A DNA stretch of 64,000 nt from an uncultured Gemmatimonadales bacterium (lineage in GTDB: Bacteria > Gemmatimonadota > Gemmatimonadetes > Gemmatimonadales > GWC2-71-9), in contig CAVQWA010000056.1 of assembly GCA_963717315.1 (NCBI GenBank), positions 5,960 through 69,959 on the forward strand, read 5' to 3'. Below are positions 13,871 through 61,859 of this stretch, in pieces. The position numbers and the translations under genes are program-made. A model generated the notes under the pieces. That model searched no databases and was not told where the DNA came from. It saw nothing but the letters and a program-made list of their open reading frames with translations. The number at the start of each line of letters is the position of its first letter. The first letter of the stretch is position 1.

Positions 13871-14476
13871 ATGCGCTTTCACTCCCTCGCCGCCCTCCTG
13901 CTCCTCGCCGCCTGCACCGCCGAGCCGCCGGCCCACCAGGCCGCCGAGCCGCCGGCGGGGCCGCGGCGGGTGGTCGACAGCATCTTCCCCATCGAGGAGG
14001 AGATCCGGCGCTTCCAGGCCACCCTCCCCGACACCGCCCGGGCCCTCGCCGGCGGCGAGGCGAGCCGCGACGCCCTGGTGCGCCGCTTCGTCCGGGCGCT
14101 CGAGGGCGGCGACTCCACCGCCTTCGCGCCGATGGCCGTGACCCGGGCCGAGTTCGGGTACCTCTACTTCCCGGAGTCCCGCTTCAGCCGGAAGCCCTAC
14201 CGGACCAAGCCCGGGCTCCTCTGGAGCCAGATCGAGAACGGCTCGAGCCGCGGGATCAACCGGGCCTACCTCCGCTTCGGCGGCCAGCCGCTCGGCTTCT
14301 CCGGCTACGACTGCCCCGCCGAGCCGGCGGCGGAGGGGGCGAACCGGGTCTGGGAGGGCTGCACCGTCACCATCCGCCCCGCCGGCAGCGACTCCGCCCG
14401 GAGCCTCCGCCTCTTCGGCTCCATTCTCGAGCGGGAGGGGAGCTGGAAGTTCCTGAGCTATTCGAACGACCTCTGA
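13871..14476 (+). CDS. hypothetical lipoprotein
   Basis: MRFHSLAALLLLAACTAEP signal with lipobox. High third-position GC. No family recognised. Confidence 0.7.
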   Translation: MRFHSLAALLLLAACTAEPPAHQAAEPPAGPRRVVDSIFPIEEEIRRFQATLPDTARALAGGEASRDALVRRFVRALEGGDSTAFAPMAVTRAEFGYLYFPESRFSRKPYRTKPGLLWSQIENGSSRGINRAYLRFGGQPLGFSGYDCPAEPAAEGANRVWEGCTVTIRPAGSDSARSLRLFGSILEREGSWKFLSYSNDL

Positions 14477-16458: not shown

Positions 16459-18710
16459 GGGCGGCCGCGGCCAAGCACCGCCTCGAGCCGGGCGGAGAGA
16501 GCGCGCGCCCGGAACGGCTTGGTGAGGAAGTCGTCGGCGCCGAGCTCGAACACCCGTACCTCGTTGTCCTCGTCTCCCTTCGCGGTGAGCACCACCACCG
16601 GCGTCCTTGCGGTGGCGGGATGCGCCCGGAGGCGCTGGAGCACGTCGTACCCCGAGAGCCCCGGGAGGTTGAGGTCGAGCACGATGATGTCGGGCGCGCC
16701 CTTGTCGGCCTGGTCGAGCGCCTCGACGCCGTCCCGCGCCTCGCTCACGTCGAAGCCGTCGCGCTCGAGCAGGTCGCGCATCACCTTGCGCAGGGTGTCC
16801 TCGTCGTCCACCAGCAGCACGTGCACTCCGCGGCGCCCCTCGGCCACCGGCGGCGGCGGCGCCACCAGCTCCTCCTCCAGCAGGTCGAAGGCGGAGGAGA
16901 GGTCCACCTCGGCGGCTCGGCGGCTCGGCGGCTCGGCGGCTGGTGCCGATGGGGCGGCGGGAGGACGGGGCGGCGGGGTTGCGACCGCCCCGCCGATCGG
17001 CAGCGCATCCAGCCCCCCGTGCCCCGGCACGTCACACACCCGGAGCAGCTCGTCGATGGAGGTCTCGCCGGCGAGCACGTGGCGGAGGCCGCTCTCCCAC
17101 AGCGACTTCATCCCCTGCTGGCGGGCCAGCCGGCCGATCCGGTCGGCGGTGGCGCCCTCCCCGATCAGCTGCTCGAGGTCCTGCGTCATCGTGAGGATCT
17201 CGGTGATGCTGAAGCGGCCGCGGTACCCGGTCTGGGCGCACTCCGAGCAGCCGACGGCCTTGTAGATCTGGGCGCCGGCGGGCACGCGGTCCCGGGCCAG
17301 CTCCGGCACCAGGTCGCCGGGGGGCACCGGCAGCGCCTCCCGGCAGATGGGGCAGAGCCGGCGCATCAGCCGCTGGGCGACGATGCCCCGGAGCGCCGAG
17401 CCGAGCTTGTACGCCTCGATGCCCATGTCCACCAGGCGCGTCACCGCGTTGGGCGCGTCGTTGGTGTGCAGGGTCGAGAGCACCAGGTGGCCGGTGAGCG
17501 AGGCCTGCACGGCGATCTGTGCCGTCTCCCGGTCGCGGATCTCCCCCACCAGCACCACGTCGGGGTCCTGCCGCAGGATGGACCGGAGCGCCGAGGCGAA
17601 GGTCAGCCCCGCCTTCTCGTTCACCTGCACCTGCACGATGTTCTGGCCCAGCTTGTACTCGACCGGGTCTTCCACCGTGACGATGTTGACGCCCTCGCCC
17701 TGGATGAGCCGGATGGCGGAGTAGAGCGTGGTCGTCTTGCCCGAGCCGGTGGGCCCGGTCACCAGCACGATCCCCTCCTTGTGGTCGAGCAGCTTGGTGA
17801 TCTTCCGCCGCTCGTCGTCGTGGAGGCCGAGCGCCTCGAGGGCCAGCACCGTGGCCTTCGAGTTGAGGATCCGGATCACGACCTTCTCGCCCAGCGAGGC
17901 CGGCAGGGTCGACACCCGGAGGTCGATCTTCTCCTGGTTCACCTGCACCCGCGCCCGCCCGTCCTGGGGCCGCAGCCGGTCCGCGATGTCGAGCCCGCTC
18001 ATGATCTTCACCCGGGAGATCACCGGAAGCCCGGCGTTCCGCGGGATCCGCATCACCTGCCGCAACACGCCGTCGATCCGGTAGCGGACGACGACGCCGC
18101 CCTCGCTCGGCTCGATGTGGATGTCGCTCGCGCGGCTGGTGACGCCGTCGGCGAGCAGCATGTCCACCAGCCGGATGATGGGGCGGGCGCTGGCCTCGTC
18201 GGCCGAGACGTTGACGTCGTCCGGCTCGTCGGTGAGCTGCCGGACCATCGGCTCGTCCATCCCGCCGAGCAGCTTGGAGAGCACCTCCTCGGGGCGGTAG
18301 TGCTCGTCGATCTTCTCCCGGAGGCGCACCGGGGGCGCGAGCGCCATCCGCACGTCGCGGCCGGTGGCGAACGCGAGCTCCTTCTCGGCGTTGATGTCGA
18401 AGGGATTCGAGGTGGCCACCTCGAGCACGGCATCGGAGATCCGGAGCGGGAGCACGTGGTGCTTCCGGGCGAGCGCCTCCGGCACCGCAACCCGCGCCTC
18501 GAGCTCGGTGCTCGAGAGGTCGGCCACCGGCAGGCGGAAGCGCTGGGCCACCGCCTGCAGGATCTGCTGGTCGGTGAGCGCACGGCGCTGCACCAGCGCC
18601 TCCCAGAGGGAGAGGTTGGTGGTCGCCTGTTCCCGCTGGAGCCCGGCCATCATCTCCGGGGCCACCAGGGGCTCGACGGACGGGACCAGCCACTCGTCGG
18701 TGAAGGGCAT
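16455..18710 (-). CDS. GspE/PilB-family secretion ATPase fused to a C-terminal response-regulator receiver domain
   Basis: ATG 18710 (MPFTDEWLV). T2SSE_N-like N-domain. Walker A GPTGSGKTTT. Asp/His boxes. CPIC...CSEC zinc motif. Pro-rich linker. Then REC with DD (LLVDDED), D (IIVLDLNLPG), T (VLTAKG) and K (LTKPF). Confidence 0.9.
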   Translation of the reverse strand: MPFTDEWLVPSVEPLVAPEMMAGLQREQATTNLSLWEALVQRRALTDQQILQAVAQRFRLPVADLSSTELEARVAVPEALARKHHVLPLRISDAVLEVATSNPFDINAEKELAFATGRDVRMALAPPVRLREKIDEHYRPEEVLSKLLGGMDEPMVRQLTDEPDDVNVSADEASARPIIRLVDMLLADGVTSRASDIHIEPSEGGVVVRYRIDGVLRQVMRIPRNAGLPVISRVKIMSGLDIADRLRPQDGRARVQVNQEKIDLRVSTLPASLGEKVVIRILNSKATVLALEALGLHDDERRKITKLLDHKEGIVLVTGPTGSGKTTTLYSAIRLIQGEGVNIVTVEDPVEYKLGQNIVQVQVNEKAGLTFASALRSILRQDPDVVLVGEIRDRETAQIAVQASLTGHLVLSTLHTNDAPNAVTRLVDMGIEAYKLGSALRGIVAQRLMRRLCPICREALPVPPGDLVPELARDRVPAGAQIYKAVGCSECAQTGYRGRFSITEILTMTQDLEQLIGEGATADRIGRLARQQGMKSLWESGLRHVLAGETSIDELLRVCDVPGHGGLDALPIGGAVATPPPRPPAAPSAPAAEPPSRRAAEVDLSSAFDLLEEELVAPPPPVAEGRRGVHVLLVDDEDTLRKVMRDLLERDGFDVSEARDGVEALDQADKGAPDIIVLDLNLPGLSGYDVLQRLRAHPATARTPVVVLTAKGDEDNEVRVFELGADDFLTKPFRARALSARLEAVLGRGRP

Positions 18711-19038: not shown

Positions 19039-21078
19039 TCACAGAATCCCCCACCACGCCCGGCTCACGTCCACCGTGACGCCCGCCTGCCCGGTGCGGA
19101 GCGCCACCCCCGCCTCGACCCGCAGGAGGCCCATCGGCCACTCCAGCGCGAGGCCGGCCACCGGGCGCACGCCGTCGGTCGGCATCCACGATACGCCGGC
19201 CAGCGCGCCGTCGGCCCATCCCGCCGACGCGAACGGCGCCACGGTGACGCCGCCGGTCCCGACCAGGCCGCCGAGGCGGATCTCCGGCGCGGGCACGGCG
19301 ACCCGCCACTCGAGGTGCGCCACCCCGCCGCGGCGGCCGCCGAAGGCCCGATAGTCCTCCCCCACCTGCGTCCCCCGGCCGCCGAACGCGACGCCGCGCC
19401 AGGCGGGGAGCTCGTCGCTGCCGGCGATCCCGTGCGCGCGGAGGACGAGCGCCCCCGGGCCCGCCGGCCACCGCGCCTCGAGGTCGAGCGCCGCGCGGAC
19501 CCAGTCGAGCCGCCCGGTCGAGGCCTCGAGCCACACCCGTCCCGCCACGTCCCGCCGCGCGAGCCCACCGGCCGCCCTCCGCTCGAGGCCGAGCGTGGCG
19601 GTGGCCGCGCTCCCCGCACCGAGCGGTGGATTCTCCCGGTACTCGCCGCTCGACGGCTCGGCCCGCACCGCGAGCGAGCGGGTGCGTCCCGCCGCGATCG
19701 CGAGCGTGAGCCTCTCGCGACCGCCGAGGGCGCGCGCCACGCCCGCCTCCACCGCCTCGTCCAGCAGCCAGTCGCCGAAGTCCTGCCCTCCCTCCTGCGC
19801 CAGGATGCTGTTGAGGAGGGGCGAGATCGGCCGCAGGTCTCCCGCGTCCCGCACGCTCCGCCGCGCCTCGGCGTGGAGCGTGGTGGCGCCGAGCCCGGCG
19901 TCGAGCCGGAGCGAGCCGGTGACCCGTCCGTCGGAGAACCCGTATGCCACCCGGGGCCGGAGGGCGAGCCGGCGGTCGCGCGAGCCGAAGGTCCAGCCGG
20001 CGCCCACCGTGAGGCCCTGCACCCGGGTCACCCGGGCCACCTCGCTCACCGAGCCGACGGCCGGCCGGCTGGCGGCGAGTCCGCTCAGCGCCTGCGCCCC
20101 CGCCAGCCGCTCGAGATCCCGCCGGAGTGCCGCGAGGTCCTCCCGCGTGACCGGCGCCGCCACGTCGGCAATGGCCTCGTCGAGTGGCCGCACCCACGCA
20201 CCCGCCGTGTCCGGCGCGGGCAGCCCGGCGATGGCGGGGCCGCGGAACAGCGAGTCGGCGAGCGGCGGGTTGAACGCGTAGTCGCCGATCTCCCAGCGCC
20301 CACGGATGATCCCGCGCGCCGGGAAGTCGAGCCACTCGCTCCGGCGGCGGATCTCGATCTCCTGCCGGAAGGGGAGCCACCAGCGCCCCTCCCAGCGGCC
20401 GTTCTCGAGCACCACCGCGATGTCCTCCACGTCGGCGTCGAGGTAGGCCGCCGGCGTGAAGCCGAAGCGGAACCGTACCACCTCCGCGGTGGCGGCATCG
20501 AGGAAGAGTTCGCCGATCACCGCGGGACGGGCGTGGTCCTTCGGGCGCACCGAGAGCACCCGGACGGCCACCTCGCCCCCGGGCCCCCGGATGGCGAGCG
20601 AGTCGGTGAGCGCGAAGTCGTAGACCCGGAGCCCGCCGGGGCTCAGCGGGTGGGGGACGCCGCGGACCTCCTCGCCGTCGCCGAGCCGGATCACCGGCCC
20701 GAAGTCGCCGGTGACGATGCCGAGGTGGTCGCGGTGGTAATGGACGCCGGTGGGGAGCCAGCGGCCGTCGCGCCAGGCGCGGATCACCTGCTTGTGGGGC
20801 CCCGGCGCGCGCCAGTACACTTCGACCGACAGCTCGTCCGCCTTCACGAGGCGGGGCGGGTCGGCGAGCCCCTCGCCCACCTGCGCCAGGAAGAAGACGA
20901 ACCCGTGCGCCACCGCCGTCCAGCTCCGCAGGGCGGAATCGCGCTCGGCGGCGGTGCGGCGGGCGGCGGCGCGCTCGGCCAGGGCGCGGGCGGCGGGCTC
21001 GTCCCTCCCCTGCGCCGCGGCCGGCGGGACGCCGGCGGCGAGAGCCAGCACGGAGAGGACGGCCAGGTGGCGCGACAT
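19039..21078 (-). CDS. hypothetical outer-membrane/surface-antigen-like protein
   Basis: ATG 21078 gives the signal MSRHLAVLSVLALAAGVPPAAAQ. The C-terminal half is rich in alternating beta-strand segments (GLALEWPMGLLRVEAGVAL). The competing ORFs 18752..21238(-) and 19315..21669(+) look like compositional artefacts. Confidence 0.75.
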   Translation of the reverse strand: MSRHLAVLSVLALAAGVPPAAAQGRDEPAARALAERAAARRTAAERDSALRSWTAVAHGFVFFLAQVGEGLADPPRLVKADELSVEVYWRAPGPHKQVIRAWRDGRWLPTGVHYHRDHLGIVTGDFGPVIRLGDGEEVRGVPHPLSPGGLRVYDFALTDSLAIRGPGGEVAVRVLSVRPKDHARPAVIGELFLDAATAEVVRFRFGFTPAAYLDADVEDIAVVLENGRWEGRWWLPFRQEIEIRRRSEWLDFPARGIIRGRWEIGDYAFNPPLADSLFRGPAIAGLPAPDTAGAWVRPLDEAIADVAAPVTREDLAALRRDLERLAGAQALSGLAASRPAVGSVSEVARVTRVQGLTVGAGWTFGSRDRRLALRPRVAYGFSDGRVTGSLRLDAGLGATTLHAEARRSVRDAGDLRPISPLLNSILAQEGGQDFGDWLLDEAVEAGVARALGGRERLTLAIAAGRTRSLAVRAEPSSGEYRENPPLGAGSAATATLGLERRAAGGLARRDVAGRVWLEASTGRLDWVRAALDLEARWPAGPGALVLRAHGIAGSDELPAWRGVAFGGRGTQVGEDYRAFGGRRGGVAHLEWRVAVPAPEIRLGGLVGTGGVTVAPFASAGWADGALAGVSWMPTDGVRPVAGLALEWPMGLLRVEAGVALRTGQAGVTVDVSRAWWGIL

Positions 21079-34386: not shown

Positions 34387-35769
34387 TCAGCTCGGCGCGC
34401 CGAGCAGCGCGCGGGTCTCCTGGATCAGCGCCTCCGCCTCCCCGGCGGTGGGCGCCTCGGCGATGAGCCGGACGATCGGCTCCGTCCCCGAGGGACGGAG
34501 GTGCAGCCACCGGTCCGCCCAGCCGAGGCGGAGCCCGTCCCGTTCATCCACCTCGGCGTCCGGGTGCCGGGCCCGGAGCGCCGCAGAGGCCGCCCCCAGG
34601 TCGGACCGGGGCGCCTTGGCCTTCACGATGCAATACCGCGGGGCGGCCTGCACGAGCTCCGACACCCGCCGGCCGGTGCTGGCCAGGAGGGTCAGGAGCA
34701 GTGCCGCCGCCAGCGGGGCGTCCCGGCCGATGTGGAGGGCCGGGAGGATGACCCCGCCGTTCCCCTCGCCGCCGATGACGGCCCCCTCGTCCCGCATCAT
34801 CCGGGCCACGTTGGCCTCCCCGACGGGCGCCCGGAGGTACCGCGCCCCCGCCTCCCGGGCGGCGTCGGCGACGACGAGGGAGGTGGAGAGGTTGGCGACG
34901 ACGGTCGGACGGTCGGACTGTCCGACTGCCCGACTGCCCGACTGTCCCAGCACCGCCCTCACCGCGAACGCCAGCGTGTAGTCCTCCCCGATCGGCTGGC
35001 CGGTCTCGTCCACGATGGCCAGGCGGTCCACGTCGGGGTCCACGGCGATTCCCACGTCGGCGCCGGCCGCGCGCACGAGACGCCCGAGGTCGCCGAGATG
35101 TTCCGGGAGCGGTTCCGGCGGGCGGGGGAAGCGGCCGTCGGTCTCGAGGTTGATGCCTGCCACCCGGCAGCCGAGCCGCTCGAGCAGCGCCGGCATCGTC
35201 GTCCCGCCGGCGCCGCGGACGCAATCGAGCGCCACGGTGAAGTGCCTCGCGCGCACGGTGGCCGCATCCACCTCCGGCAGCGCGAGCACCAGGTCGAGGT
35301 GCCGGGCGATCGCTCCGGCGTCGTCCTCCAACGCGCCGATCCCGTCCCACCCCGCGCGGGCGGGCCCCTCCTCCGCCAGCGCGCGCACCCGGGCGCCCGC
35401 CTCCGCGTCGAGGAAGATCCCGTCCGGGCCCACGAACTTGAGCGCGTTCCACTCGATCGGGTTGTGGCTCGCGGTGAGGATGAGGCCCGCCCCGGCGTGG
35501 TGGTGCTCCACCGCGAGCTGTACCGTGGGCGTGGGGGCGACGCCCACGTCGATCACCCGCGCGCCCACCGACATCAGCCCCGCGGCCGCCGCGCGCGCGA
35601 ACATCGGGCCGCTGGTGCGCGCGTCCCGCCCCAGCACCACCGCCGGCCGGCCGTTCGCCGCGGCCCAGGCGCCGAGCGCGGCGGCATGCCGGGCCACCCG
35701 CTCCGGCGTCAGGTCGGTCCCGACCAGTCCCCGCATCCCGGAGACGCTGATCATCAGGGTGTCGGACAT
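34387..35769 (-). CDS. glmM: phosphoglucosamine/phosphohexose mutase (GlmM-type)
   Basis: ATG 35769 (MSDTLMISVSGMRG). Active-site TASHNPIEWNALK. Metal site DPDVDR. GGEGNGG. This is only the C-terminal third of the 1377-aa ORF in the track. Confidence 0.9.
   Translation of the reverse strand: MSDTLMISVSGMRGLVGTDLTPERVARHAAALGAWAAANGRPAVVLGRDARTSGPMFARAAAAGLMSVGARVIDVGVAPTPTVQLAVEHHHAGAGLILTASHNPIEWNALKFVGPDGIFLDAEAGARVRALAEEGPARAGWDGIGALEDDAGAIARHLDLVLALPEVDAATVRARHFTVALDCVRGAGGTTMPALLERLGCRVAGINLETDGRFPRPPEPLPEHLGDLGRLVRAAGADVGIAVDPDVDRLAIVDETGQPIGEDYTLAFAVRAVLGQSGSRAVGQSDRPTVVANLSTSLVVADAAREAGARYLRAPVGEANVARMMRDEGAVIGGEGNGGVILPALHIGRDAPLAAALLLTLLASTGRRVSELVQAAPRYCIVKAKAPRSDLGAASAALRARHPDAEVDERDGLRLGWADRWLHLRPSGTEPIVRLIAEAPTAGEAEALIQETRALLGAPS
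34899..34948. repeat. octamer palindrome embedded in frame inside glmM
   Basis: gacggtcggacggtcggac-t-gtccgactgcccgactgcccgactgtccc. Translated on the coding strand as ...GQSGSRAVGQSDRP... Confidence 0.9.
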
Positions 35770-39286: not shown

Positions 39287-41490
39287 GGATCCTGGTCGTC
39301 GGCGGCGGCGGCCGCGAGCACGCGCTCTGCTGGGCGGCGCGCCGCGAGCATCCCGAGGCCGAGCTCTGGTGCGCGCCGGGGAACCCCGGCACCGCCGCCG
39401 TCGCGACCAACCTCCCCGTCGCGGCCGACGATCTCGGCGGGATCGTCGCGGCCGCGCGGGAGCACACCACCCACCTCGTCATCGTCGGCCCCGAGGCGCC
39501 GCTGGCACTGGGCCTCGCCGACCGGCTCCGCGCCGAGCGTTGCCCCGTGTTCGGGCCCTCCGCCGCCGCCGCGCGGCTCGAGGCCTCCAAGGCGTTCGCC
39601 AAGGAGGTGATGGCGCACGCCGGGGTGCCCACCGCCGCGAGCCGCACCTTCACCGACGGCACGGCGGCGCTGGCGTACGTGGCGGCGCACGCGGAGCCGC
39701 TCGTGGTGAAGGCGTCGGGCCTCGCCGCCGGGAAGGGCGCGATCGTCTGCGCCACGCGGGCCGAGGCCGAGGCTGCGGTGCGTGCGATGCTGGTGGAGGG
39801 AAAGTTCGGCGAGGCGGGGCGCACCGTGGTGGTGGAGGAGTTCCTCCGGGGCGAGGAGCTCTCGGTGCTCGCCATCACCGACGGGGAGGAGGTGGTGCTC
39901 CTCCCGCCGTCGCAGGACCACAAGCGGCTGGGCGAGGGCGACACCGGCCCGAACACCGGCGGGATGGGCGCCTACAGCCCCGTGGCCATCGCCACCCCCG
40001 CGCTCCTCGGCCGCGCCATCTCCACGGTGATCAAGCCCACGCTCGCGGCACTCCGCGACCTCGGCGCCCCGTTCAGCGGGCTCCTCTACGCCGGGCTGAT
40101 GGTGGAGGAGGACGGCACGATCAACGTGGTGGAGTTCAACTGCCGCTTCGGCGACCCCGAGGCGCAGGTGGTGCTGCCGCTGGTGCGGGAGGGGTTCACG
40201 GACTGCCTCCTCGCGGTGGCGGAGGGGAGGTCACCCACCCCGTTGAGGCTGAGCCGGGACGCCGCGGTCACCACCGTGCTCGCCGCGCGGGGCTATCCCG
40301 ACGCACCGGAAAAGGGTGCCGCCATCACCATCCCCACGGACCTCCCCGCCGGCGTGACCGTCTTCCACGCCGGCACCAATCGTGACGCCGACGGCACCCT
40401 CCGGGTGAATGGCGGCCGGGTCCTCAACGTCACCGCCGTGGCGCCGACGTTCGAGGCGGCGCAGTTCCTCAGCCGCGACGCCGCCGACCGCATCGCGTTC
40501 GAGGGGAAGACCTGGCGGCGGGACGTGGGGTGGCGGGAGGCCGAGCGGCGGACGGGCGGGAAGGCGGCGGGAGCGGCGGGTTGCGCCCTCCTGCAACTCG
40601 CCGTCCCGCCCTCCCGCCGCCTATTCTTCCCCCGTGCCCGAGCTCCCCGAAGTCGAGACCATCGTCCGCGACATCCGGCCCCGCCTGGTGGGCCGGACCA
40701 TCACGCGGGCTTCCCTCTCCCACGACGACGTCCTCCGCGGGGTCACGAAGCGGAGGCTCCTCGCCGCCCTCGCGGGCGCGCGGATCGTGGCGGTCGAGCG
40801 CCGGGCCAAGCACGCCGTCCTCACCCTGCTCCCCTCTCCCCTCTCCCCTCTCCCCTCTCCCCGACTCGTCATCCAGCCCGGCATGTCCGGCTCCCTCATC
40901 GTCCACGACGCGCCCCTCCGGCGGGCCCAGGCCGCGTACGCCGTCCTCCGCGCCCCGCTCGACGACGGCGCCGAGCTGGTCTACCGCGACGTGCGCCGGC
41001 TCGGCACCCTGCTCCTCCTCGACACCGGGGGCTGGGCCGCGTACGACGCCGCCATCGGGCCGGAGCCGCTGGCCCCCGACTGGACGCCGGAGGCTCTCCT
41101 TCGCACCTTGAAAGGAAGTCGGCAGGCGGTGAAGAAGGTGCTGATGGACCAGCGGAAGGTCGCGGGAGTGGGGAACATCTACGCCAACGAGGCGCTCTGG
41201 GCCGCACGGGTGGACCCGTCCCGCCCCGCCTGCCGGGTCACCCCCGCGGAGGCGGAGGCGCTGCACGGCCACGTGCGCCGGATCCTCGCCGCCGCCATCC
41301 ACTCCAAGGGCACCACGCTCCGCGACTATCGCACCGGCACCGGCGGGCGGGGCAGCTTCCAGCTCGAGCTCTTCGTCTACGGGCGGGAGGGAGAGCCCTG
41401 CCGCGCCTGCGGCACGCGGCTCGCCGGCACCCACGCCATCGACGCGCGCATCACCGTCTTCTGCCACCGCTGCCAGGCCTGAACGAGTGA
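39283..41490 (+). CDS. purD: phosphoribosylamine--glycine ligase PurD; homology ends near 40560 but the frame has no stop until 41490
   Basis: GTG overlaps the M48 stop (GTGA). MRILVVGGGGREHALCW...full ATP-grasp...FEGKTWRRDVGWREAER matches the usual PurD C-terminus. The frame then runs through a hairpin repeat and across mutM out of frame. Confidence 0.85.
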   Translation: MRILVVGGGGREHALCWAARREHPEAELWCAPGNPGTAAVATNLPVAADDLGGIVAAAREHTTHLVIVGPEAPLALGLADRLRAERCPVFGPSAAAARLEASKAFAKEVMAHAGVPTAASRTFTDGTAALAYVAAHAEPLVVKASGLAAGKGAIVCATRAEAEAAVRAMLVEGKFGEAGRTVVVEEFLRGEELSVLAITDGEEVVLLPPSQDHKRLGEGDTGPNTGGMGAYSPVAIATPALLGRAISTVIKPTLAALRDLGAPFSGLLYAGLMVEEDGTINVVEFNCRFGDPEAQVVLPLVREGFTDCLLAVAEGRSPTPLRLSRDAAVTTVLAARGYPDAPEKGAAITIPTDLPAGVTVFHAGTNRDADGTLRVNGGRVLNVTAVAPTFEAAQFLSRDAADRIAFEGKTWRRDVGWREAERRTGGKAAGAAGCALLQLAVPPSRRLFFPRARAPRSRDHRPRHPAPPGGPDHHAGFPLPRRRPPRGHEAEAPRRPRGRADRGGRAPGQARRPHPAPLSPLPSPLSPTRHPARHVRLPHRPRRAPPAGPGRVRRPPRPARRRRRAGLPRRAPARHPAPPRHRGLGRVRRRHRAGAAGPRLDAGGSPSHLERKSAGGEEGADGPAEGRGSGEHLRQRGALGRTGGPVPPRLPGHPRGGGGAARPRAPDPRRRHPLQGHHAPRLSHRHRRAGQLPARALRLRAGGRALPRLRHAARRHPRHRRAHHRLLPPLPGLNE
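40563..40621. repeat. GC-rich inverted repeat at the expected purD end
   Basis: ggcggcgggag (40563..40573) is the exact reverse complement of ctcccgccgcc (40611..40621). Flanked by GGGA/GGCG-type short repeats. Confidence 0.75.
40634..41482 (+). CDS. mutM: formamidopyrimidine-DNA glycosylase
   Basis: GTG 40634 gives (M)PELPEVETIVRDI. RRAKH...GMSGSL. H2TH KVLMDQRKVAGVGNIYANEALW. C-terminal zinc finger CRACGTRL...FCHRCQ. Confidence 0.88.
   Translation: MPELPEVETIVRDIRPRLVGRTITRASLSHDDVLRGVTKRRLLAALAGARIVAVERRAKHAVLTLLPSPLSPLPSPRLVIQPGMSGSLIVHDAPLRRAQAAYAVLRAPLDDGAELVYRDVRRLGTLLLLDTGGWAAYDAAIGPEPLAPDWTPEALLRTLKGSRQAVKKVLMDQRKVAGVGNIYANEALWAARVDPSRPACRVTPAEAEALHGHVRRILAAAIHSKGTTLRDYRTGTGGRGSFQLELFVYGREGEPCRACGTRLAGTHAIDARITVFCHRCQA
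40831..40862. repeat. (CCCCTCT)x4 heptamer array embedded in frame inside mutM
   Basis: cccctctcccctctcccctctcccctctcccc. Encodes LPSPLSPLPSP between RRAKHAVLTL and RLVIQPGMSGSL. Confidence 0.9.
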
Positions 41491-42566
41491 CCGCGGTCCT
41501 CCCCTTCGCCGCCGCCGACCACGAGGTGCTGCTCGAGCGGGTGAAGCGGCTGGCGGAGAACCGGCCGGGGACCTATCGCATGACCGACGAGGCGGGCCGG
41601 CTGCTCTACGTCGGCAAGGCCAAGCGGCTCCGCACCCGGCTCCTCACCTATTTCCGCGCCGCTCCCGAGGACAAGGCCGCCCGGATCCTCCAGGCGGCGC
41701 GGAACGTCGCCTGGGAATACGCGCCGAGCGAGTTCGCCGCGGGGCTCGCCGAGCTGCGGCTCATCCGCCGCCACCGGCCGCCGTACAACGTGCAGTACAA
41801 CCGGAACCGGCGGCTCGCCTTCGTCCGGGTCACCGCGGAGGCCGCCCCGCGGGTCCTCGTGGCGGCGGCGCCGGGCGAGAGCGGCCGGAGCTACGGGCCG
41901 TTCGCCGCGCCCTCGCGCGTGACCGAGGCGGTGCGGGTGCTCGGCGACCTGCTCGGCCTCCGGGACTGCGGCGCGAAGATGCCGGTGGTCTTCGCCGCGC
42001 AGGAGGACCTCTTCACGGCGCCGGCGCTGGCCGCCTGTCCCCGGCACGCCTTCGGCACCTGCGCCGGGCCGTGCGCCGGGCTGGTGGCGCAGGCCGCATA
42101 CGCGGCGCGGGTCGAGGCGGCCGCCGCCTTCCTCGAGGGCCGCGCCGTCCGGCCGATCGACCGCGCGGTGGCCGAGATGGCCCGCGCCGCCGGCCAGGAG
42201 GAATTCGAACTCGCGCTGAGGTGGCGCGAGCGCTACGAGGCGCTCGAGTGGCTGCTCGCCACGGTGGCCCGCGCGCGCGCCGCGCGGGACCTCCTCACGT
42301 TCGTCTACCGCGACACCGGGGCCCACGGCGACGACCGGGCCTACCTCGTCCGCGGCGGCGAGGTGCGCGCCGCCTTCCCCTGGCCCGGCACCCCGATCGA
42401 GGCGGAGGCGTTCCGCGCCGTCGTCCGGGAGGAGCTCGCCCGGCCGATGGACCCGACCGGCCCGCTCCCCCTCGACCGGGCGGACGAGATCCTGCTGGTG
42501 ATGAGCTGGTTCCGCCGGCACCCGGAGGCCCTTCGCCGGACAACGCCGCTCGCGGAATGGACCTAG
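41487..42566 (+). CDS. UvrC-like GIY-YIG nuclease domain protein (Cho-like)
   Basis: GIY-YIG module GTYRMTDEAGRLLYVGKAKRLRTRLLTYF...EFAAGLAELRLIRRHRPPYN. Shorter than full UvrC. Confidence 0.8.
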   Translation: MTAVLPFAAADHEVLLERVKRLAENRPGTYRMTDEAGRLLYVGKAKRLRTRLLTYFRAAPEDKAARILQAARNVAWEYAPSEFAAGLAELRLIRRHRPPYNVQYNRNRRLAFVRVTAEAAPRVLVAAAPGESGRSYGPFAAPSRVTEAVRVLGDLLGLRDCGAKMPVVFAAQEDLFTAPALAACPRHAFGTCAGPCAGLVAQAAYAARVEAAAAFLEGRAVRPIDRAVAEMARAAGQEEFELALRWRERYEALEWLLATVARARAARDLLTFVYRDTGAHGDDRAYLVRGGEVRAAFPWPGTPIEAEAFRAVVREELARPMDPTGPLPLDRADEILLVMSWFRRHPEALRRTTPLAEWT

Positions 42567-42586
42567 AGAGGGGAGAGGGGAGAGGG
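42567..42586. repeat. (GGGGAGA)x~2.7 directly after the stop at 42566
   Basis: agaggggagaggggagaggg. Confidence 0.85.
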
Positions 42587-42604
42587 CCCCCCCACCACAC
42601 CCCC

Positions 42605-42775
42605 CCGACTCTCCGACTGTCCGACCGTCCGACCGTCCGACCGTCCGACTGTCCGACCGTCCGACCGTCCGACCGTCCGACCGTCCGACTGTCCGACCGT
42701 CCGACCGTCCGACCGTCCGACCGTCCGACCGTCCGACTGTCCGACCGTCCGACCGTCCGACTGTCCGACTCCGAC
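42605..42775. repeat. 21-unit phased octamer array (CCGACYGT) plus one truncated unit
   Basis: CCGAC recurs every 8 bp from 42605 to 42765 (21 units). The spacer alternates CGT/TGT. A final out-of-phase CCGAC lies at 42771. Confidence 0.95.
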
Positions 42776-45489: not shown

Positions 45490-46017
45490 ATGGCCGACCG
45501 CGATCACATCGTCGCCGCGATCCGTGCGAGCGGGAACTTCCAGTCCGAGGTGCGCTACATCGCGCGCGGGGGCTATGTCGTGGCCGATTCACCCCGGCTC
45601 TTCAAGCACCTCGAGAACGGCCTGGTCCGCGTCGTCTTCCCCACCACCGCCACGGAGATGAATGACGGCACCGTCGTGGCGATGGTCTGCCTCTGGGACT
45701 CGAACGAGGGGTACAACATCTACGCGCACACCATCTGCGCCGGCGGCGGGGTGAACATCCTGCTCCGGACGATGGACCACCCGATGCCGCAGGCCCTGCC
45801 CCAGCCGCTGCCCGAGGGGCCCCGCGCCATCCGGAAGTTCGTGGCCTGGAAGGAAGCCTCCTGGGTGAAGTTCCTGAACGACGAGCTCGCGGTCGGCAAC
45901 GCCCGCGCCTCGCGGCTCTGGATCGCGTGCTTCTGGAAGGCGCTGGACCGGATGTTCGGCGGCGGGAACCTGCTGGGCTTCGATCCCGAGGCGGAGATGC
46001 GGGCGGCGGAAGGCTGA
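45490..46017 (+). CDS. hypothetical protein
   Basis: ATG preceded by ggag. Coding-like composition. No family recognised. Opposite strand to the surrounding quinone genes. Confidence 0.65.
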   Translation: MADRDHIVAAIRASGNFQSEVRYIARGGYVVADSPRLFKHLENGLVRVVFPTTATEMNDGTVVAMVCLWDSNEGYNIYAHTICAGGGVNILLRTMDHPMPQALPQPLPEGPRAIRKFVAWKEASWVKFLNDELAVGNARASRLWIACFWKALDRMFGGGNLLGFDPEAEMRAAEG

Positions 46018-46086
46018 GGGGGGAGGGGAGAGGGGAGAGGGGGAGCGGCCCTCTCCCCTCTCCCCTCTCCCCTCTCCCCTCTCCCC
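46016..46086. repeat. G-arm/C-arm (GGGGAGA/TCTCCCC) hairpin between convergent stops
   Basis: 46016..46041 pairs with 46049..46074. Hand count: 25 Watson-Crick pairs plus one G-T, 7-nt loop. The C-arm extends to 46086. Confidence 0.95.
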
Positions 46087-47884: not shown

Positions 47885-47996
47885 AGGGGAGAGGGGAGAA
47901 GGGAGAGGGGAGACGGGAGATGGGGGGGAGGGCATCACGCGCTTGCGCCCACGGTGCGCGTGCCGACCTCTCCCCTCTCCCCTCTCCCCTCTCCCC
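47885..47996. repeat. split G-arm (x6) / C-arm (x4) heptamer inverted repeat between ubiE and ubiD
   Basis: aggggagaggggagaagggagaggggagacgggagatggggggg ...37 nt... cctctcccctctcccctctcccctctcccc. The C-arm lies inside the ubiE ORF tail. Confidence 0.9.
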
Positions 47997-48717
47997 GCTC
48001 CGCGACGTGCAGCGCCGTCGCCCCACCGAGCAGGAGCTCGTGCTCCGCGGCCCGGAAGCCGCACTGCCGGAGCAGGTCGTCCAGCGCCGCGGGCTCGGGG
48101 AAGTGACGGGCCGACTCTGGAAGCCAGGAGTAGGCGTCCGTATGTTTCGAGAAGAACCGGCCCACGCGCGGCAGCACGCGCTCGAAGTAGAGATTGTAGA
48201 GCCCGCGAAGCGGCTGGCGCGGGGGATGGCAGGTGTCCAGCAGGACGAGCCGCGCGCCCGGCTTGAGCACCCGCGCCACCTCGCGCAGCCCGGCCTCGAG
48301 GTCCATCAGGTTCCGGAGCCCCCACCCCACCATCGCGCCGTCGAAGGTGGCGTCGGGAAACGGCAGCTGGAGCGCGTCGGCGGTCACCGGCTGCAGTCCC
48401 GGCGCCTTGCCGCGCCCGAGCCGGAGCATCGGCAGGACGAAGTCGGCGGCGGTGATCTTCCCGCGGAACCCGGGCTGACGGGCCAGGGCGGCCGAGAAAT
48501 CGAGCGTGCCGGCGCAGAGGTCGAGGTAGTGACCGTCGGGACGGCGCTCCCATCCGAGCCGCCGCACCGCCACCTTCCGCCAGTGAATGTCCAGGCGGAA
48601 GCTGATGATGCGGTTGAGGCGGTCGTAGCTCGGGGCGATGGCGGTGAACATCCCCCGCACATAGGCCCGCTTCTCCGCTCCGCCCGCAACGGGCAACTGT
48701 CCACCGGAGGCCGACAT
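47935..48717 (-). CDS. ubiE: demethylmenaquinone/ubiquinone C-methyltransferase (UbiE/MenG)
   Basis: FTAIAPSYDRLNRIISF...YLDLCAGT SAM motif...LRNLMD. The final AERGEGRGERGEVGTRTVGASA is repeat-derived. Confidence 0.9.
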   Translation of the reverse strand: MSASGGQLPVAGGAEKRAYVRGMFTAIAPSYDRLNRIISFRLDIHWRKVAVRRLGWERRPDGHYLDLCAGTLDFSAALARQPGFRGKITAADFVLPMLRLGRGKAPGLQPVTADALQLPFPDATFDGAMVGWGLRNLMDLEAGLREVARVLKPGARLVLLDTCHPPRQPLRGLYNLYFERVLPRVGRFFSKHTDAYSWLPESARHFPEPAALDDLLRQCGFRAAEHELLLGGATALHVAERGEGRGERGEVGTRTVGASA

Positions 48718-49413: not shown

Positions 49414-49998
49414 ATGAGCGACGTGCCCCTCACCCACCTGTCTGCCGACGACCTCGACGCCTGGATCGAGGGCCGCCTCGGGTCCGCCCGGGCCGGGCAC
49501 CTCCGCCACTGCGCGGAATGCCGGGACCTGGTCGAGCGCGAGCGTGCCCTGGTGGAACTCCTTGGAGCCCTCCCCCGCCTGGCCCCCGCGGCCGGGCTCG
49601 AGGACCGGGTCATGGCCCGCGTCCGGGTGCCCCAGCCCGCCGCGGCGGCGGTGGCCCACCGCCCCGCCGTCGCGCCGTCCCGCCGTCGCACCGCCGGGGC
49701 GGCGGTGCTTCTCGGCATGGCCGCGAGCATCGCGTGGAGCCTCGGCAACCGCGCGCTGCTGGACAGCTGGGGCACCTGGCTCCTGGGCGAGTCCAGCCAG
49801 CTCCTCTGGGTGAGCGTGCAGGCCGTCGCGTCGAACCTCCTCGAACAGCCCTGGTCCCGGGAAGTCCGGAGCTTCATTGCCGCTCCGGGCCGGCTCCTGC
49901 CGGTCCTGGGCGCGGCCTCCCTGGTCTACGCAAGCGGCCTCCTGGCGCTCCGGCGCCTGATGGCGCTGCCGACCGCCGGGGTGGCCCATGCGCGCTAG
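49414..49998 (+). CDS. anti-sigma factor (zf-HC2 type, membrane-anchored)
   Basis: AGGAGG RBS. HLRHCAECRDLV zinc motif. Later hydrophobic segments. Confidence 0.8.
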   Translation: MSDVPLTHLSADDLDAWIEGRLGSARAGHLRHCAECRDLVERERALVELLGALPRLAPAAGLEDRVMARVRVPQPAAAAVAHRPAVAPSRRRTAGAAVLLGMAASIAWSLGNRALLDSWGTWLLGESSQLLWVSVQAVASNLLEQPWSREVRSFIAAPGRLLPVLGAASLVYASGLLALRRLMALPTAGVAHAR

Positions 49999-51607: not shown

Positions 51608-52387
51608 ATGCGCTCGATGACCGTGGCCCGCCAGCAGCACGGCGAGACCCGGCTCCGCGCCGCCATCGGGTTCGGCGCCGGCGACGTCTCGATCCAGCCC
51701 GCCCCGGAGGGCACCCTCTACGCCGCGGACCTCACCTGGGACGCGGAGCGCTTCGCGCCCCGCACCCGCTACGATGCCGCCGCGGCGCACCTCTCCATCG
51801 CGCTCGAGCCCATCGGCGGCGGGGGGGTGCGCGTCGCCTCCACCCGCCACCTGGCGCAGCGGGCCGTGATCACGCTCTCCCCGACCGCCGAGCTCGACCT
51901 CGACGCCACGCTCGGCGCGGCGGACGCCACCCTCGAGCTGGGCGGGCTCCGCCTGGCGGAGCTCCGGGTCCGCACCGACGCGACGCGCGCCACGGTCCGG
52001 TTCAGCCGCCCGAATCCCGGGGCGTGCAGCCGGGCCGATTTCCGGGGCGGCGCCGCCGAGCTGGAGATTTCGCACCTGGGCGACGCCGGCTGCCGGGTGG
52101 TGCAGGTCGAGGGCGGCGTGGGCACCGTCACGCTCGACCTCGGCGGGGCGTGGCCCGCGGAGGCGAAGCTGGATGTCTCCGTCACCCTCGGCAGCGTCCG
52201 CCTCCGGGTGCCGCGGGACCTCGGCGTCAGGCTCACCCTGGAGCGATTCGTCGCGAGCTTCCAGCCCGCGGGGTTCGTCCAGGAGGGTGGCGCCTGGGTC
52301 ACCGAAGGCTACGCCTCGGCGGCCCGAAAGCTCGAGCTCCGCGTGGCCGCCACCGTCGGCGGCGTGCAGGTGGAGCGGGTGGAGTAG
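51608..52387 (+). CDS. toastrack/DUF2154-like beta-rich protein (possible frameshift from ATG 51541)
   Basis: Repeating LELGG..., VEGGVGTVTLDLGG, VTLGSVRLRVPRDLGV pattern. A signal peptide MRLPALAALALALVCAGSGGA is encoded from ATG 51541 in another frame and overlaps the upstream stop (ATGA). Confidence 0.7.
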   Translation: MRSMTVARQQHGETRLRAAIGFGAGDVSIQPAPEGTLYAADLTWDAERFAPRTRYDAAAAHLSIALEPIGGGGVRVASTRHLAQRAVITLSPTAELDLDATLGAADATLELGGLRLAELRVRTDATRATVRFSRPNPGACSRADFRGGAAELEISHLGDAGCRVVQVEGGVGTVTLDLGGAWPAEAKLDVSVTLGSVRLRVPRDLGVRLTLERFVASFQPAGFVQEGGAWVTEGYASAARKLELRVAATVGGVQVERVE

Positions 52388-52477
52388 TCGCGAGTCACGA
52401 GTCGCGAGACGCGAGTCGCGAGTCGCGAGACGCGAGTCACGAGTCGCGAGTCGCGAGTCGCGAGTCGCGAGTCACAC
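52387..52477. repeat. (GTCGCGA)n heptamer array, 12 units plus 1 degenerate
   Basis: Units gtcgcga/gtcacga/gacgcga, in phase from the last base of the stop codon at 52387. Confidence 0.95.
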
Positions 52478-52523
52478 CTCCCGCTCCCCGTTCCCCGTTC
52501 CCCGTCCGTGTTCCCCGTTCCCT
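52478..52523. repeat. (TCCCCGT)n heptamer array, about 6 units, contiguous with the previous array
   Basis: ctcccgc tccccgt tccccgt tccccgt ccgtgt tccccgt tccctcg. Confidence 0.9.
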
Positions 52524-56196: not shown

Positions 56197-56280
56197 CGGG
56201 ACGGGGAACGGGGAGAGGGGAGAGGGGAGAGGGGAGCGGGGAGGGGGCCCTCTCCCCTCTCCCCTCTCCCCTCTCCCCCC
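56197..56280. repeat. G-arm/C-arm heptamer hairpin filling the whole intergenic gap
   Basis: 56210..56236 pairs with 56252..56278 (27 pairs by hand count). Three further GC pairs follow after one mismatch. Spans exactly from start codon 56196 to stop codon 56281. Confidence 0.95.
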
Positions 56281-57408
56281 TCACCCGCTCACCACCGGCA
56301 GCGTCGTCTCCAGCCCCGCCACCTCCTCCACCACCCGCTGGGCGATGTCGCGGAGGGCGGTGGCCGCCGGGCTCCCCGGCTGGGAGAGGACGATCGGGCG
56401 GCCGAGGTCGGCGTCGTCAGGGAGGCCGGGCTGGAGCGGGATCTTGCCGAGGAGCGGGATGCCAAGCTCCTCCGCCAGCCGCTGGCCGCCGCCGGTGAGG
56501 AAGATGTCGGAGTGCTGGCCGCAGTGGGTGCAGGTGAAGCCGCTCATGTTCTCCACCACGCCGGCCACGGGCACGCCGACCTTCTCGAACATCTTCGCCC
56601 CGCGGAGCGCGTCGCCGATCGCCACCACCTGCGGCGTCGTCACGATGATCGCGGCCGTGACCTTCGTGGTCTGCGCCAGCGAGAGCTGCGCGTCGCCGGT
56701 GCCGGGAGGCATGTCCACGATCAGGTAGTCGAGTTCGCCCCACGCGACGTCGTGCAGGAACTGGTGGATCACCTTCATGATGATCGGCCCGCGCCAGATG
56801 ACCGGCGCGTCGCGCTCGAGCAGGAACCCGAGCGACATCAGCTTCACCCCGTACGCCTCCAGCGGGACGATCCGGTTGCCGTCCCGCATCGGACGCTCGA
56901 AGACGCCCATCATCCTCGGCACGTTGGGGCCGTAGACGTCGGCGTCCATCATCCCCACCCGGTGCCCCGCCTCCGCGAGCGCCACCGCCAGGTTCACCGC
57001 CACCGTGGACTTCCCCACCCCGCCCTTCCCCGACGACACCGCGATGATCCGCCCGAGGTGCGGCAGCTCCATCCCCGCCGGAGCCGTCCCGGCCGCTCCA
57101 GCGGTCGCAGGCGCCCCCGCCCCCGCCCCCGCCCCCGGCGGCCCGTGCGTCGCCGGCGCCGGGCCCGCGGGATCGGTCACCCGGATCCGCGCCGGCGGCT
57201 CGACGCCCGTCACCCCCTCCACCGCCTTCCGCACCTGGCGCACCAGCGTCGCCGGGTCATCGCGGCCGAGGAGGAAGGTGAAGGAGACCTCGCCGGCGTC
57301 GGACACCGACAGGTCGCGCACCAGGCCGGCCGTGAGGACGTCGCCCTTCGCGGGATGCGCCACGCCGCGGAGCGCGGCGAGGACGCGGGAGTGGAGCGTA
57401 TCGGTCAT
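56281..57408 (-). CDS. apbC: Mrp/ApbC-family Fe-S cluster carrier ATPase
   Basis: ATG 57408 (MTDTLHSRVLAAL). N-terminal DUF59-like domain. Gly/Ala/Pro linker. Deviant Walker A SGKGGVGKST. CTHCG motif. Confidence 0.92.
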   Translation of the reverse strand: MTDTLHSRVLAALRGVAHPAKGDVLTAGLVRDLSVSDAGEVSFTFLLGRDDPATLVRQVRKAVEGVTGVEPPARIRVTDPAGPAPATHGPPGAGAGAGAPATAGAAGTAPAGMELPHLGRIIAVSSGKGGVGKSTVAVNLAVALAEAGHRVGMMDADVYGPNVPRMMGVFERPMRDGNRIVPLEAYGVKLMSLGFLLERDAPVIWRGPIIMKVIHQFLHDVAWGELDYLIVDMPPGTGDAQLSLAQTTKVTAAIIVTTPQVVAIGDALRGAKMFEKVGVPVAGVVENMSGFTCTHCGQHSDIFLTGGGQRLAEELGIPLLGKIPLQPGLPDDADLGRPIVLSQPGSPAATALRDIAQRVVEEVAGLETTLPVVSG

Positions 57409-60686: not shown

Positions 60687-60771
60687 GGGGGAGAGGGGAG
60701 AGGGGAGAGGGCCGAGCGGCCGTCGCGCGTCTCCCGTCTCCCCTCTCCCCTCTCCCCTCTCCCCTCTCCCC
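60687..60771. repeat. G-arm/C-arm heptamer inverted repeat
   Basis: 60688..60711 pairs with 60741..60764 (24 Watson-Crick pairs by hand count), with a 29-nt loop. The C-arm ends at the stop of CDS 60771..61859. Confidence 0.93.
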
Positions 60772-61859
60772 TACTCGACCACTTCGGCGAGCTCGACGAC
60801 GGGATTGGGCAGCCACCGCGTGCTCGCCGCGCGCAGGATGACGCGCCCCGTGAACTCGGAGAGCGGCGCCATCCCCTTGAACCGTGCCGCCTGCGGCGGG
60901 GAGACGATCACGTACACGTACCCCGGCTCCGGCAGCGGGCCGCGGGCGAGGAGGTACTCCCGACCCTCCGGCAGCTCGGGGCGGAGCGCGTCGGCGGTCT
61001 GCACCGCCACCAGCTGCAGGCGCCACTCGATGAGCTGCCCGGTGTAGCGGTCCGGCTGTGCCCGCACCTCCGAGGTGGAGACGCCGCGGAGCGCGCCGCC
61101 CGGCGCCGGCCGCGCGTCGCCCGCCGGGAGCCAGCCCTCGATCCGCACCTTCACCCACTCGCCGGAACGCGCGATGACCTCGCCCTCCGCCCCGTCGGCC
61201 AGCGTGGCGATCCCCGCGCCGCCCGGCTCCGCGGCGAGGAGCGCGTTGGTGGCGGTGGCGACGCGGTCGCTCGACGGGGCGACGGGGCCCGCAGGCGGCG
61301 CGGCGGCTCCGCCGCCTGGCGGCGGGACGGAGGGTTGCGGGGACGGCGCGCGGACGGCGTCCCCCGACGCGCCGTCCCGCCGCCCCGCCGTCCGCTCCGC
61401 GAACGCCGACCGGAGCGCCCACCCCTCCCGCCGCACCCGGACCCATCGCCCCTGCGTCGTGCGCCGGTCGAGCAGCGCGCCCCGCGAGAGCTTCGCCACC
61501 ATCGCCCCGTTCGGCGCGGCGCGGAGGTTCTCCCCGCCGTCGGCGCTCACCACCAGGTCGAAGCCGTCGCGCGTGGTGCGCGCCACGCTCGGCGCGTAGA
61601 TCCAGCCGTCGAGCGTCACCTCCACCCAGCCGCCCCGGGTGCGCCCGGTGGGCACCCGCGCGCCGGGCTGGAGCATCCCGAGCTGCGTCCCGCCGGGCTC
61701 CTTCCGGAACGCGGTGGCGCGCCGCACCGCCTGCGCATCCTGCGCGGCGAGCGGGCCCGCGAGGAGCGCGAGCGCCGCGGCGATCGAGGCTGTCAGGCGG
61801 GAGGGGACCGGGATAGATTGCGGCTCCAGTCTCACGATCCCGAATCGTAGGAGCCGCAC
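60771..61859 (-). CDS. secreted protein with bacterial SH3-like repeats
   Basis: Signal ...LTASIAAALALLAGPLAAQ. Repeated GGWVEVTLDGWI / GRWVRVRREGWA / GEWVKVRIEGWL SH3b-like motifs. Start GTG 61859, or more likely GTG 61832. Confidence 0.8.
   Translation of the reverse strand: MRLLRFGIVRLEPQSIPVPSRLTASIAAALALLAGPLAAQDAQAVRRATAFRKEPGGTQLGMLQPGARVPTGRTRGGWVEVTLDGWIYAPSVARTTRDGFDLVVSADGGENLRAAPNGAMVAKLSRGALLDRRTTQGRWVRVRREGWALRSAFAERTAGRRDGASGDAVRAPSPQPSVPPPGGGAAAPPAGPVAPSSDRVATATNALLAAEPGGAGIATLADGAEGEVIARSGEWVKVRIEGWLPAGDARPAPGGALRGVSTSEVRAQPDRYTGQLIEWRLQLVAVQTADALRPELPEGREYLLARGPLPEPGYVYVIVSPPQAARFKGMAPLSEFTGRVILRAASTRWLPNPVVELAEVVE

Follow-up and report, generated by a model that had tools for sequence, protein, structure and literature searches.

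How does a tandem repeat whose unit is not divisible by three come to lie in frame inside a conserved DNA-repair gene, and what keeps the gene readable? The question is raised by an array of CCCCTCT heptamers within fpg/mutM of an uncultured Gemmatimonadales bacterium, found in a stretch of 64,000 nucleotides (GenBank assembly GCA_963717315.1, contig CAVQWA010000056.1, positions 5,960 to 69,959 of the forward strand), which we call the window and from whose first letter positions are counted. When a conserved gene contains a non-triplet tandem repeat, the usual interpretation is a pseudogene scar or a phase-variation switch, and the mutM array fits neither. The explanation that we favor, and consider fairly probable, is that of a tolerated passenger array in a permissive loop, held in frame by selection on mutM, with a unit that turns over together with a genome-wide repeat family. 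The concerted turnover of the unit across a clade is a more interesting result than the insert itself.

The gene and its array comprise the following features.

40634-41482, forward strand: fpg/mutM coding sequence including the stop codon (GTG start, 282 codons plus stop)
40824-40862, forward strand: whole heptamer array as reported by Tandem Repeats Finder (TRF; period 7, 5.4 copies, 96% matches, score 69)
40831-40858, forward strand: four perfect CCCCTCT units, (AGAGGGG)4 on the template strand, with three overlapping exact dimers
40829-40861, forward strand: loop codons 66-76, spelling LPSPLSPLPSP, which replace the 3-residue turn (GER) of orthologues of 274 amino acids (aa)

The window reads t (CCCCTCT)x4 CCCC gac at 40830-40865, the perfect units being followed by a partial unit that ends at 40862. 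TRF reports an array made up of a degenerate CCCTGCT, the four perfect CCCCTCT units and the partial CCCC, and its start at 40824 lies upstream of the perfect units because the degenerate unit stands before them. A first-pass annotation of the window had placed four CCCCTCT units in frame in mutM and had them encode LPSPLSPLPSP, with which both the sequence and the translation of the open reading frame (...RRAKHAVLTL-LPSPLSPLPSP-RLVIQPGMSGSL...) agree exactly. It had further pointed out that a change of one unit would shift the frame. The products computed for other unit numbers bear this out (1, 4 or 7 units alone keep the frame, and 2, 3, 5 or 6 units give nonsense products), and no natural instance of such a change was found.

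The host gene is an intact fpg/mutM, whose product is predicted from its sequence to be an 8-oxoguanine/Fapy glycosylase-lyase. It scores above both Fpg equivalog cut-offs of NCBIfam (PRK01103, NF002211: 250.5 bits against a cut-off of 212; TIGR00577: 244.5 against 203.3) and matches the Pfam models Fapy_DNA_glyco and H2TH; its match to the Pfam zinc-finger model falls short of E 0.001. P2, E3, K59, M84, C256, C259, C277 and C280 are all present and are invariant or nearly so across 59 orthologues, and all residues that are invariant in these 59 are kept in the window's Fpg. An AlphaFold2 (AF2) model of the protein has a mean predicted local distance difference test score (pLDDT) of 82.9, and its top Foldseek matches are MutM-DNA complexes (1R2Y: E 5e-26, TM 0.74). 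The earlier identification of the gene as mutM (Fpg) is upheld by the equivalog scores and by the match of the fold to solved MutM structures; the integrity of frame, catalytic N-terminus, H2TH and zinc finger, also claimed earlier, is upheld by P2, E3, K59, M84, the H2TH match and the four cysteines. The protein is presumably active. Its best genome-level relative among the matches listed is from a Gemmatimonadales metagenome-assembled genome and is 66% identical. In a search of genome contigs with the whole protein, the matches listed were mostly distant Fpg sequences that share the universal MPELPEVE motif, and these were used as a background set.

In the alignment of this protein with E. 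coli Fpg (PDB 1K82) and Geobacillus MutM (1L1T, 1R2Y), the insert coincides exactly with a gap of 8 residues in the solved sequences, and the turn at this site has 3-4 residues in solved Fpg structures and in most orthologues. The three-residue turn that the first-pass annotation gives for E. coli Fpg is thereby confirmed, and the array is an insertion, as had been proposed, being extra relative to E. coli and Geobacillus Fpg and to the 274-aa orthologues of the same order. The AF2 model, which supplies the structural mapping suggested as a check in the first-pass annotation, places residues 67-76 as coil between two beta-strands, 60-66 and 77-81. A coil between strands, at a gap in the solved sequences, indicates that the insert is in a beta-hairpin turn whose second strand leads to the intercalating Met84; known structures suggest that this turn faces away from the DNA. 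Among the matches listed, the segment from K59 to M84 has 16-17 residues in 68 of 80 diverse bacterial Fpg, and 20-31 non-repetitive residues in nine of the 80, which belong to unrelated lineages. Longer segments in unrelated lineages argue that the turn accepts insertions.

Most Gemmatimonadales orthologues have 274 aa and the loop LDLGERRLVVQPGM, and 38 carry a hypervariable insert of 4-20 extra residues at the turn. All 38 fall within one clade of 39 tips in a neighbour-joining tree built with the loop masked (P0039, with a separate small insert, is elsewhere in the tree), and the insert probably has a single ancestral origin. The alignment of orthologues, which had likewise been suggested, makes the hypervariable insert a feature of the whole clade. 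In every relative with readable DNA, the loop insert is a short tandem array of another unit, as listed here by locus with the DNA identity of the mutM flanks to the window.

L204: flanks 87-89% identical; loop ACCGCTC x4.6
L201, L203 and L205: flanks 84-93% identical; loop ACCGCTC x4.3-4.4
L210: flanks 93.8% identical; loop of three CCCGCTC, then one ACCGCTC
L208 and L209: flanks 84-88% identical (L208); loop CCCGCTC, with one unit CCCGTTC
L202: flanks 90.5-93.1% identical; loop octamer CCTGCCGT x4.1
L206: flanks 74-75% identical; loop octamer CTACCCGC x7.2
L207: flanks 75-78% identical; loop nonamer CTTCGCGCC x6.0

The flanks of L201, L202, L205 and L210 are 90.5-93.8% identical to those of the window at the DNA level, yet the units differ. 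In the close relatives (flanks 84-94% identical), the array, when read in register, has four units and a five-base partial and stays in frame, and the unit is one or two bases off the window's CCCTCTC, with the identical change in every unit. The loop peptides of relatives are unrelated (e.g. PPAHRSPLTAHR and PCRPAALPSC) and are translations of other 7-, 8- and 9-base arrays; their periods of 7, 8 or 3 residues are the expected spelling of three heptamers, three octamers or one nonamer. The first-pass annotation had held that its reading would fall if the proline-serine loop were conserved in relatives lacking the periodicity. Such conservation is absent among the orthologues, and it is the periodicity of the DNA that is conserved instead.

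The heptamer is far from confined to mutM. The dimer CCCCTCTCCCCTCT occurs 49 times in the window with at most one mismatch, compared with 0.12 in shuffled sequence, which puts the repeat far above chance and assigns it to a genome-wide family. Of the 40 arrays with a period of 7-9 that TRF finds in the 64 kb, 15 are of the CCCCTCT family; no coding frame spans 32 of the 38 arrays whose period is 7 or 8. The mutM array is the sole in-gene member of the 15, a distribution that agrees with the earlier description of the repeat as of an intergenic type. No inverted partner of the mutM array was found within 120 bases. Three of the inverted pairs found by TRF in the window are listed below.

46016-46086, unstranded: GAGGGGA x3.9 followed by CCCTCTC x5.4, between convergent genes and able to form a hairpin
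56210-56282, unstranded: GGGGAGA x5.4 and CCCTCTC x5.0, intergenic, directly after a stop codon and ahead of the next start
60688-60772, unstranded: inverted pair of a CCCCTCT-family unit, intergenic

Inverted pairs of the form (GGGGAGA)n...(CCCTCTC)n are common, with another at 47885-48001, and they stand after stop codons or between convergent genes; they are predicted to form long hairpins without a T-tract. The density of arrays is 0.34-0.63 per kb in insert-bearing genomes versus 0-0.22 per kb in short-loop genomes, and repeat richness seems to be a trait of the insert-bearing clade. In the short-loop genomes L211 (20.8 kb), L001 and L002, arrays of period 7-9 are three to six times fewer per kb.

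The unit in mutM often matches other arrays of its own genome, as observed in several genomes, with exceptions. Exact CCCCTCT runs recur at 11 further positions of the window, and ~93 kb of DNA from the loci of twelve relatives contains none. Outside mutM, arrays of ACCCGCCT stand at three intergenic sites, all of them in L206, and ACCGCTC recurs once, in L204 alone; L207 has TTTCGCGCC, a close variant of its nonamer, immediately upstream of mutM. At a site by the UbiD gene, recognizable by the common right flank TACCACCTCCC, the window has GAGGGGA/CCCTCTC (46016-46086) versus CGGTGAG/CCGCTCA in L204. The units are exchanged here just as in mutM, in both arms of the hairpin. The pair in L204 is at 19398-19482, and the arms at this site stay complementary, so that the hairpin co-varies.

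In all relatives, the spacer between purD and mutM holds an array, and the unit differs from one relative to the next.

L204, 9868-9993: CGGACAGT/GACTGCCC
L203, 650-727: CTACCCGT
L206, 9927-9990: ACCCGCCT
L201, 46-89: TCCCGTCT
L202, 30-83: CTGTCCGA

The same spacer in the window (40503-40632) has a degenerate inverted repeat only.

We propose that the array in mutM, which stands alone and has a single arm, belongs to a dispersed family of 7-9-base tandem repeats of this soil bacterium. The usual home of that family would lie between genes, often as inverted pairs, able to form hairpins, downstream of genes. One array would have lodged in the beta-turn of Fpg in the ancestor of one repeat-rich Gemmatimonadales clade. 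Since the turn tolerates extra residues, the enzyme would stay functional, and purifying selection on mutM would purge variants of a length not divisible by three; every readable allele is in frame. The peptide itself may have no role of its own and would be whatever the current DNA unit spells in three successive frames. The unit would turn over at a far higher rate than the mutM flanks accumulate point substitutions, perhaps through ectopic conversion or template switching among the dispersed arrays, with local slippage in addition. Conversion together with slippage is in our view the most likely mechanism of turnover, and it is the concerted change at constant copy number that leads us to appeal to conversion.

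Several observations weigh against this explanation. All four units change together while the copy number is constant, which is awkward for pure slippage, and the swap from period 7 to period 8 within one 33-base loop (the window and L202) is unexplained. The match of units within a genome rests on few loci, with 1-21 kb per relative: L203 has ACCGCTC in mutM, but GCGGGGA in the hairpin after the orthologous 175-aa gene, and no second copy of the loop unit was found in the sequenced loci of L201, L202 and L208, which are short. The model also assigns the loop a high confidence (pLDDT ~92-94 over residue blocks 61-80), which might hint at some structure.

If tolerated passage with concerted turnover is the right account, the array would be a natural marker for the rate at which dispersed bacterial microsatellites are homogenised, as well as a clear example of repeat DNA making new protein loop sequence without loss of function. 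It would also call for caution in annotation and assembly, given contigs that break at the array and Fpg then called from Met84. P0112, P0122, P0123 and P0139 are Fpg called in this way, with 199 aa and no catalytic N-terminus. These calls are an annotation pitfall and not real truncations.

A more far-reaching version of the same account, which we regard as possible but doubtful, is that active genome-wide copying (ectopic conversion or a dedicated repeat-writing process, beyond local slippage) keeps the dispersed arrays of each genome alike and overwrites the mutM array, with rewrites that may pass through mutator intermediates in which mutM is off. If so, sister genomes would carry different units and even different periods at one codon position, protein loops that evolve fast would keep arising from short tandem repeats, and the rate of the process could be read from the mutM array.

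Less likely again is a contingency locus or mutator switch, in which slippage by one or two heptamers would turn mutM off reversibly and give rise to subpopulations with raised G:C to T:A change. Loss of mutM is viable in E. coli, and off states could be tolerated. The non-triplet unit in an open reading frame that marks contingency loci is present, and the products of 2, 3, 5 or 6 units would be without H2TH and zinc finger; Salmonella mutL is a documented case of a repair gene switched on and off by repeats (PMC2955026). In-frame three-unit differences also exist in more distant members of the clade (P0013 with 280 aa and P0137 with 289 aa, from one 90% cluster; P0090 and P0018 with 283 aa and P0022 with 291 aa, eight residues apart), so that slippage does occur on evolutionary time. 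However, the mutM tract is short, and there are ~4.3-4.6 units in the window as well as in each of the seven close relatives found with heptamer arrays. In the two nearest 90% clusters, the full-length members, 11 in number, all have the protein of 283 residues (the call for P0126 is longer by 21 residues at the N-terminus), and the two 199-aa calls that we checked are contig-edge truncations with the array in frame. Out-of-frame alleles were not seen among close relatives, and a hybrid of the 5- and 3-unit products, searched as a probe for frameshift alleles against 5.8 billion proteins, gave only ordinary N-terminal matches. Two candidate frameshift alleles were rejected: P0150 has a frameshift near the C-terminus, which is unrelated, and P0145 is from an indel-ridden contig and of the short-loop type. 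With a small sample of close relatives, represented by protein and assembly data, the switch is unsupported, though possible in principle; if real, it would be the base-excision-repair counterpart of the mutL repeat switches.

It is improbable that the loop is adaptive, i.e. that a Pro/Ser-rich docking or spacer element was selected and the DNA periodicity is incidental. The loop has 11-12 residues in the closest relatives, it is rich in P, S, R, A, L and T in every case, and the high pLDDT of the modelled loop could be read in the same way. Against this, there is no conservation of its sequence between orthologues whose mutM flanks are 90.5-93.8% identical, the insert varies from 4 to 20 residues across the clade, and the peptides are exact translations of tandem units, some of which are also intergenic in the same genome.

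Just as improbable is a cis-acting element, by which a quadruplex of the G-rich template (GGGGAGA)4GGGG would modulate mutM transcription or mark a recombination site. Motif prediction does find a canonical G-quadruplex (G4) motif on the template strand of the array, and G-rich heptamers of Xanthomonas and Nostoc, with a preference for four units, form G4 in vitro (PMC4692102). The template units of close relatives, GTGAGCG and ACGGCAGG, are however without G-tracts, which means that the G4 potential is not conserved, and the lack of an inverted partner within 120 bases also speaks against such an element.

By far the least probable reading is an assembly artefact, with the array introduced or its length distorted by a metagenome assembler joining through the shared repeat: assemblies do break at the array (L205 starts inside it, at 1-30, and four gene calls begin at the Met after the loop), but independent assemblies from different samples and pipelines agree in placing an array in frame at this codon, between flanks that are collinear, and the 39-base array is shorter than a sequencing read.

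Two further candidates were rejected, namely programmed ribosomal frameshifting (neither a slippery-site pattern nor a downstream structure is present) and insertion of an intein or mobile element (there are just 8 extra residues and no terminal repeats). A search of metagenome DNA with the pattern AAGCAYGC-N{42,72}-CARCCNGGNATG gave 120 matches, all by chance and none of them Fpg, the pattern being too loose.

Heptameric simple sequence repeats are over-represented in bacteria, as Mrazek et al. reportedly found in 2007, and both dispersal above chance and a non-coding bias are seen for the repeats studied here. The GGGNATC and GGGGA(C/T)T heptamers of Xanthomonas and Nostoc favor non-coding DNA, can be arranged in inverted fashion and tend towards four units per array (Rehm et al. 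2015, PMC4692102). The two systems share head-to-tail 7-base units with one G- or C-tract each, spread genome-wide with a strong bias towards non-coding DNA near gene ends, sometimes in inverted pairs, with about four units common. Unlike them, the present family has a GGGGAGA unit and a Gemmatimonadales host, is accompanied by octamer and nonamer families, and has one array in frame inside a conserved enzyme. Exchange of the unit at orthologous sites, seen here, was not found by term searches of PMC4692102 (the section comparing two Xanthomonas was outside their scope).

The closest parallel to the in-gene array is given by the Rickettsia palindromic elements (RPE), which are found in frame in unrelated housekeeping genes at positions that suit the fold and function of the host protein (Ogata et al. 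2000, as related in PMC10969869). Like them, the mutM array belongs to a dispersed, otherwise intergenic repeat family and is read in frame on the surface of a conserved protein. RPE, as described there, are palindromic mobile elements of ~150 bp with a conserved peptide, whereas here a tandem array of ~30-60 bp encodes an unconserved peptide and has neither terminal inverted repeats nor any sign of transposition. The mutM array thus works like an RPE insertion and is not a member of the RPE family; nor is it a member of the phase-variable class. Salmonella mutL has 6-bp repeats whose switching was observed experimentally (PMC2955026), and the likeness is that of a short tandem repeat in a DNA-repair gene where a change in copy number would alter repair; the difference is that one- or two-unit changes would be frameshifts here and that no off allele was found. 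The tolA repeats of E. coli, which vary between strains, are also, going by the abstract of PMC3477136, a variable repeat region in a conserved gene with in-frame differences in copy number, but any copy number is in frame there, whereas only every third is viable with the 7- or 8-base units found here, and here the unit is replaced between relatives. The STRR heptamers of heterocystous cyanobacteria and the TAACTGA repeats of Beggiatoaceae are likewise abundant, lineage-specific intergenic heptamer direct repeats, with units that are different and AT-richer (PMC4679880). We found no description in the open-access literature of orthologous in-gene arrays that exchange their unit, or even their period, between sister genomes. 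For the STRR and TAACTGA repeats we know of no report of in-frame inserts with the unit exchanged between orthologues.

Downstream of mutM lies one further gene of interest in the window, which has a G+C content of ~73%.

41487-42566, forward strand: UvrC-like gene, starting 4 bases past the mutM stop codon (359 aa, GIY-YIG domain)

The gene order purD, mutM, UvrC-like is kept in all relatives with enough flank. The 359-aa protein resembles a short UvrC-like nuclease, and a UvrC_M domain is also found in its orthologues. The longest array of the window, TCCGACCG x19.8 (158 bases), follows GAGAGGG x3 at 42566-42769, just past this gene; L204 has no array at the junction, and its next gene begins 4 bases past the stop codon. 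At 52386-52522, AGTCGCG x12.6 abuts CCCGTTC x6.3, which puts two heptamer families in one intergenic region. A search of the 64-kb window against Rfam gave no match at the gathering score of any family.

The first-pass annotation had counted mutM as the second case of such a repeat inside a gene, and an octamer array is indeed found in a glmM-like gene: at 34899-34947, within the minus-strand gene at 34387-35769, CGACTGTC x6.1 is translated as GQSGSRAVGQSDRPT, part of a variable loop in a phosphoglucosamine mutase that resembles GlmM. The array in this loop is longer in L204 (+10 aa), and L206 and L211 are non-repetitive there. A perfect octamer array, CTCGGCGG x4.2 at 16908-16941 on the minus strand, is coding and lies in a Pro/Ala-rich stretch of a protein of ~830 aa, and weaker arrays in coding frames are found at 13917-13954, 20947-20998 and 49665-49693.

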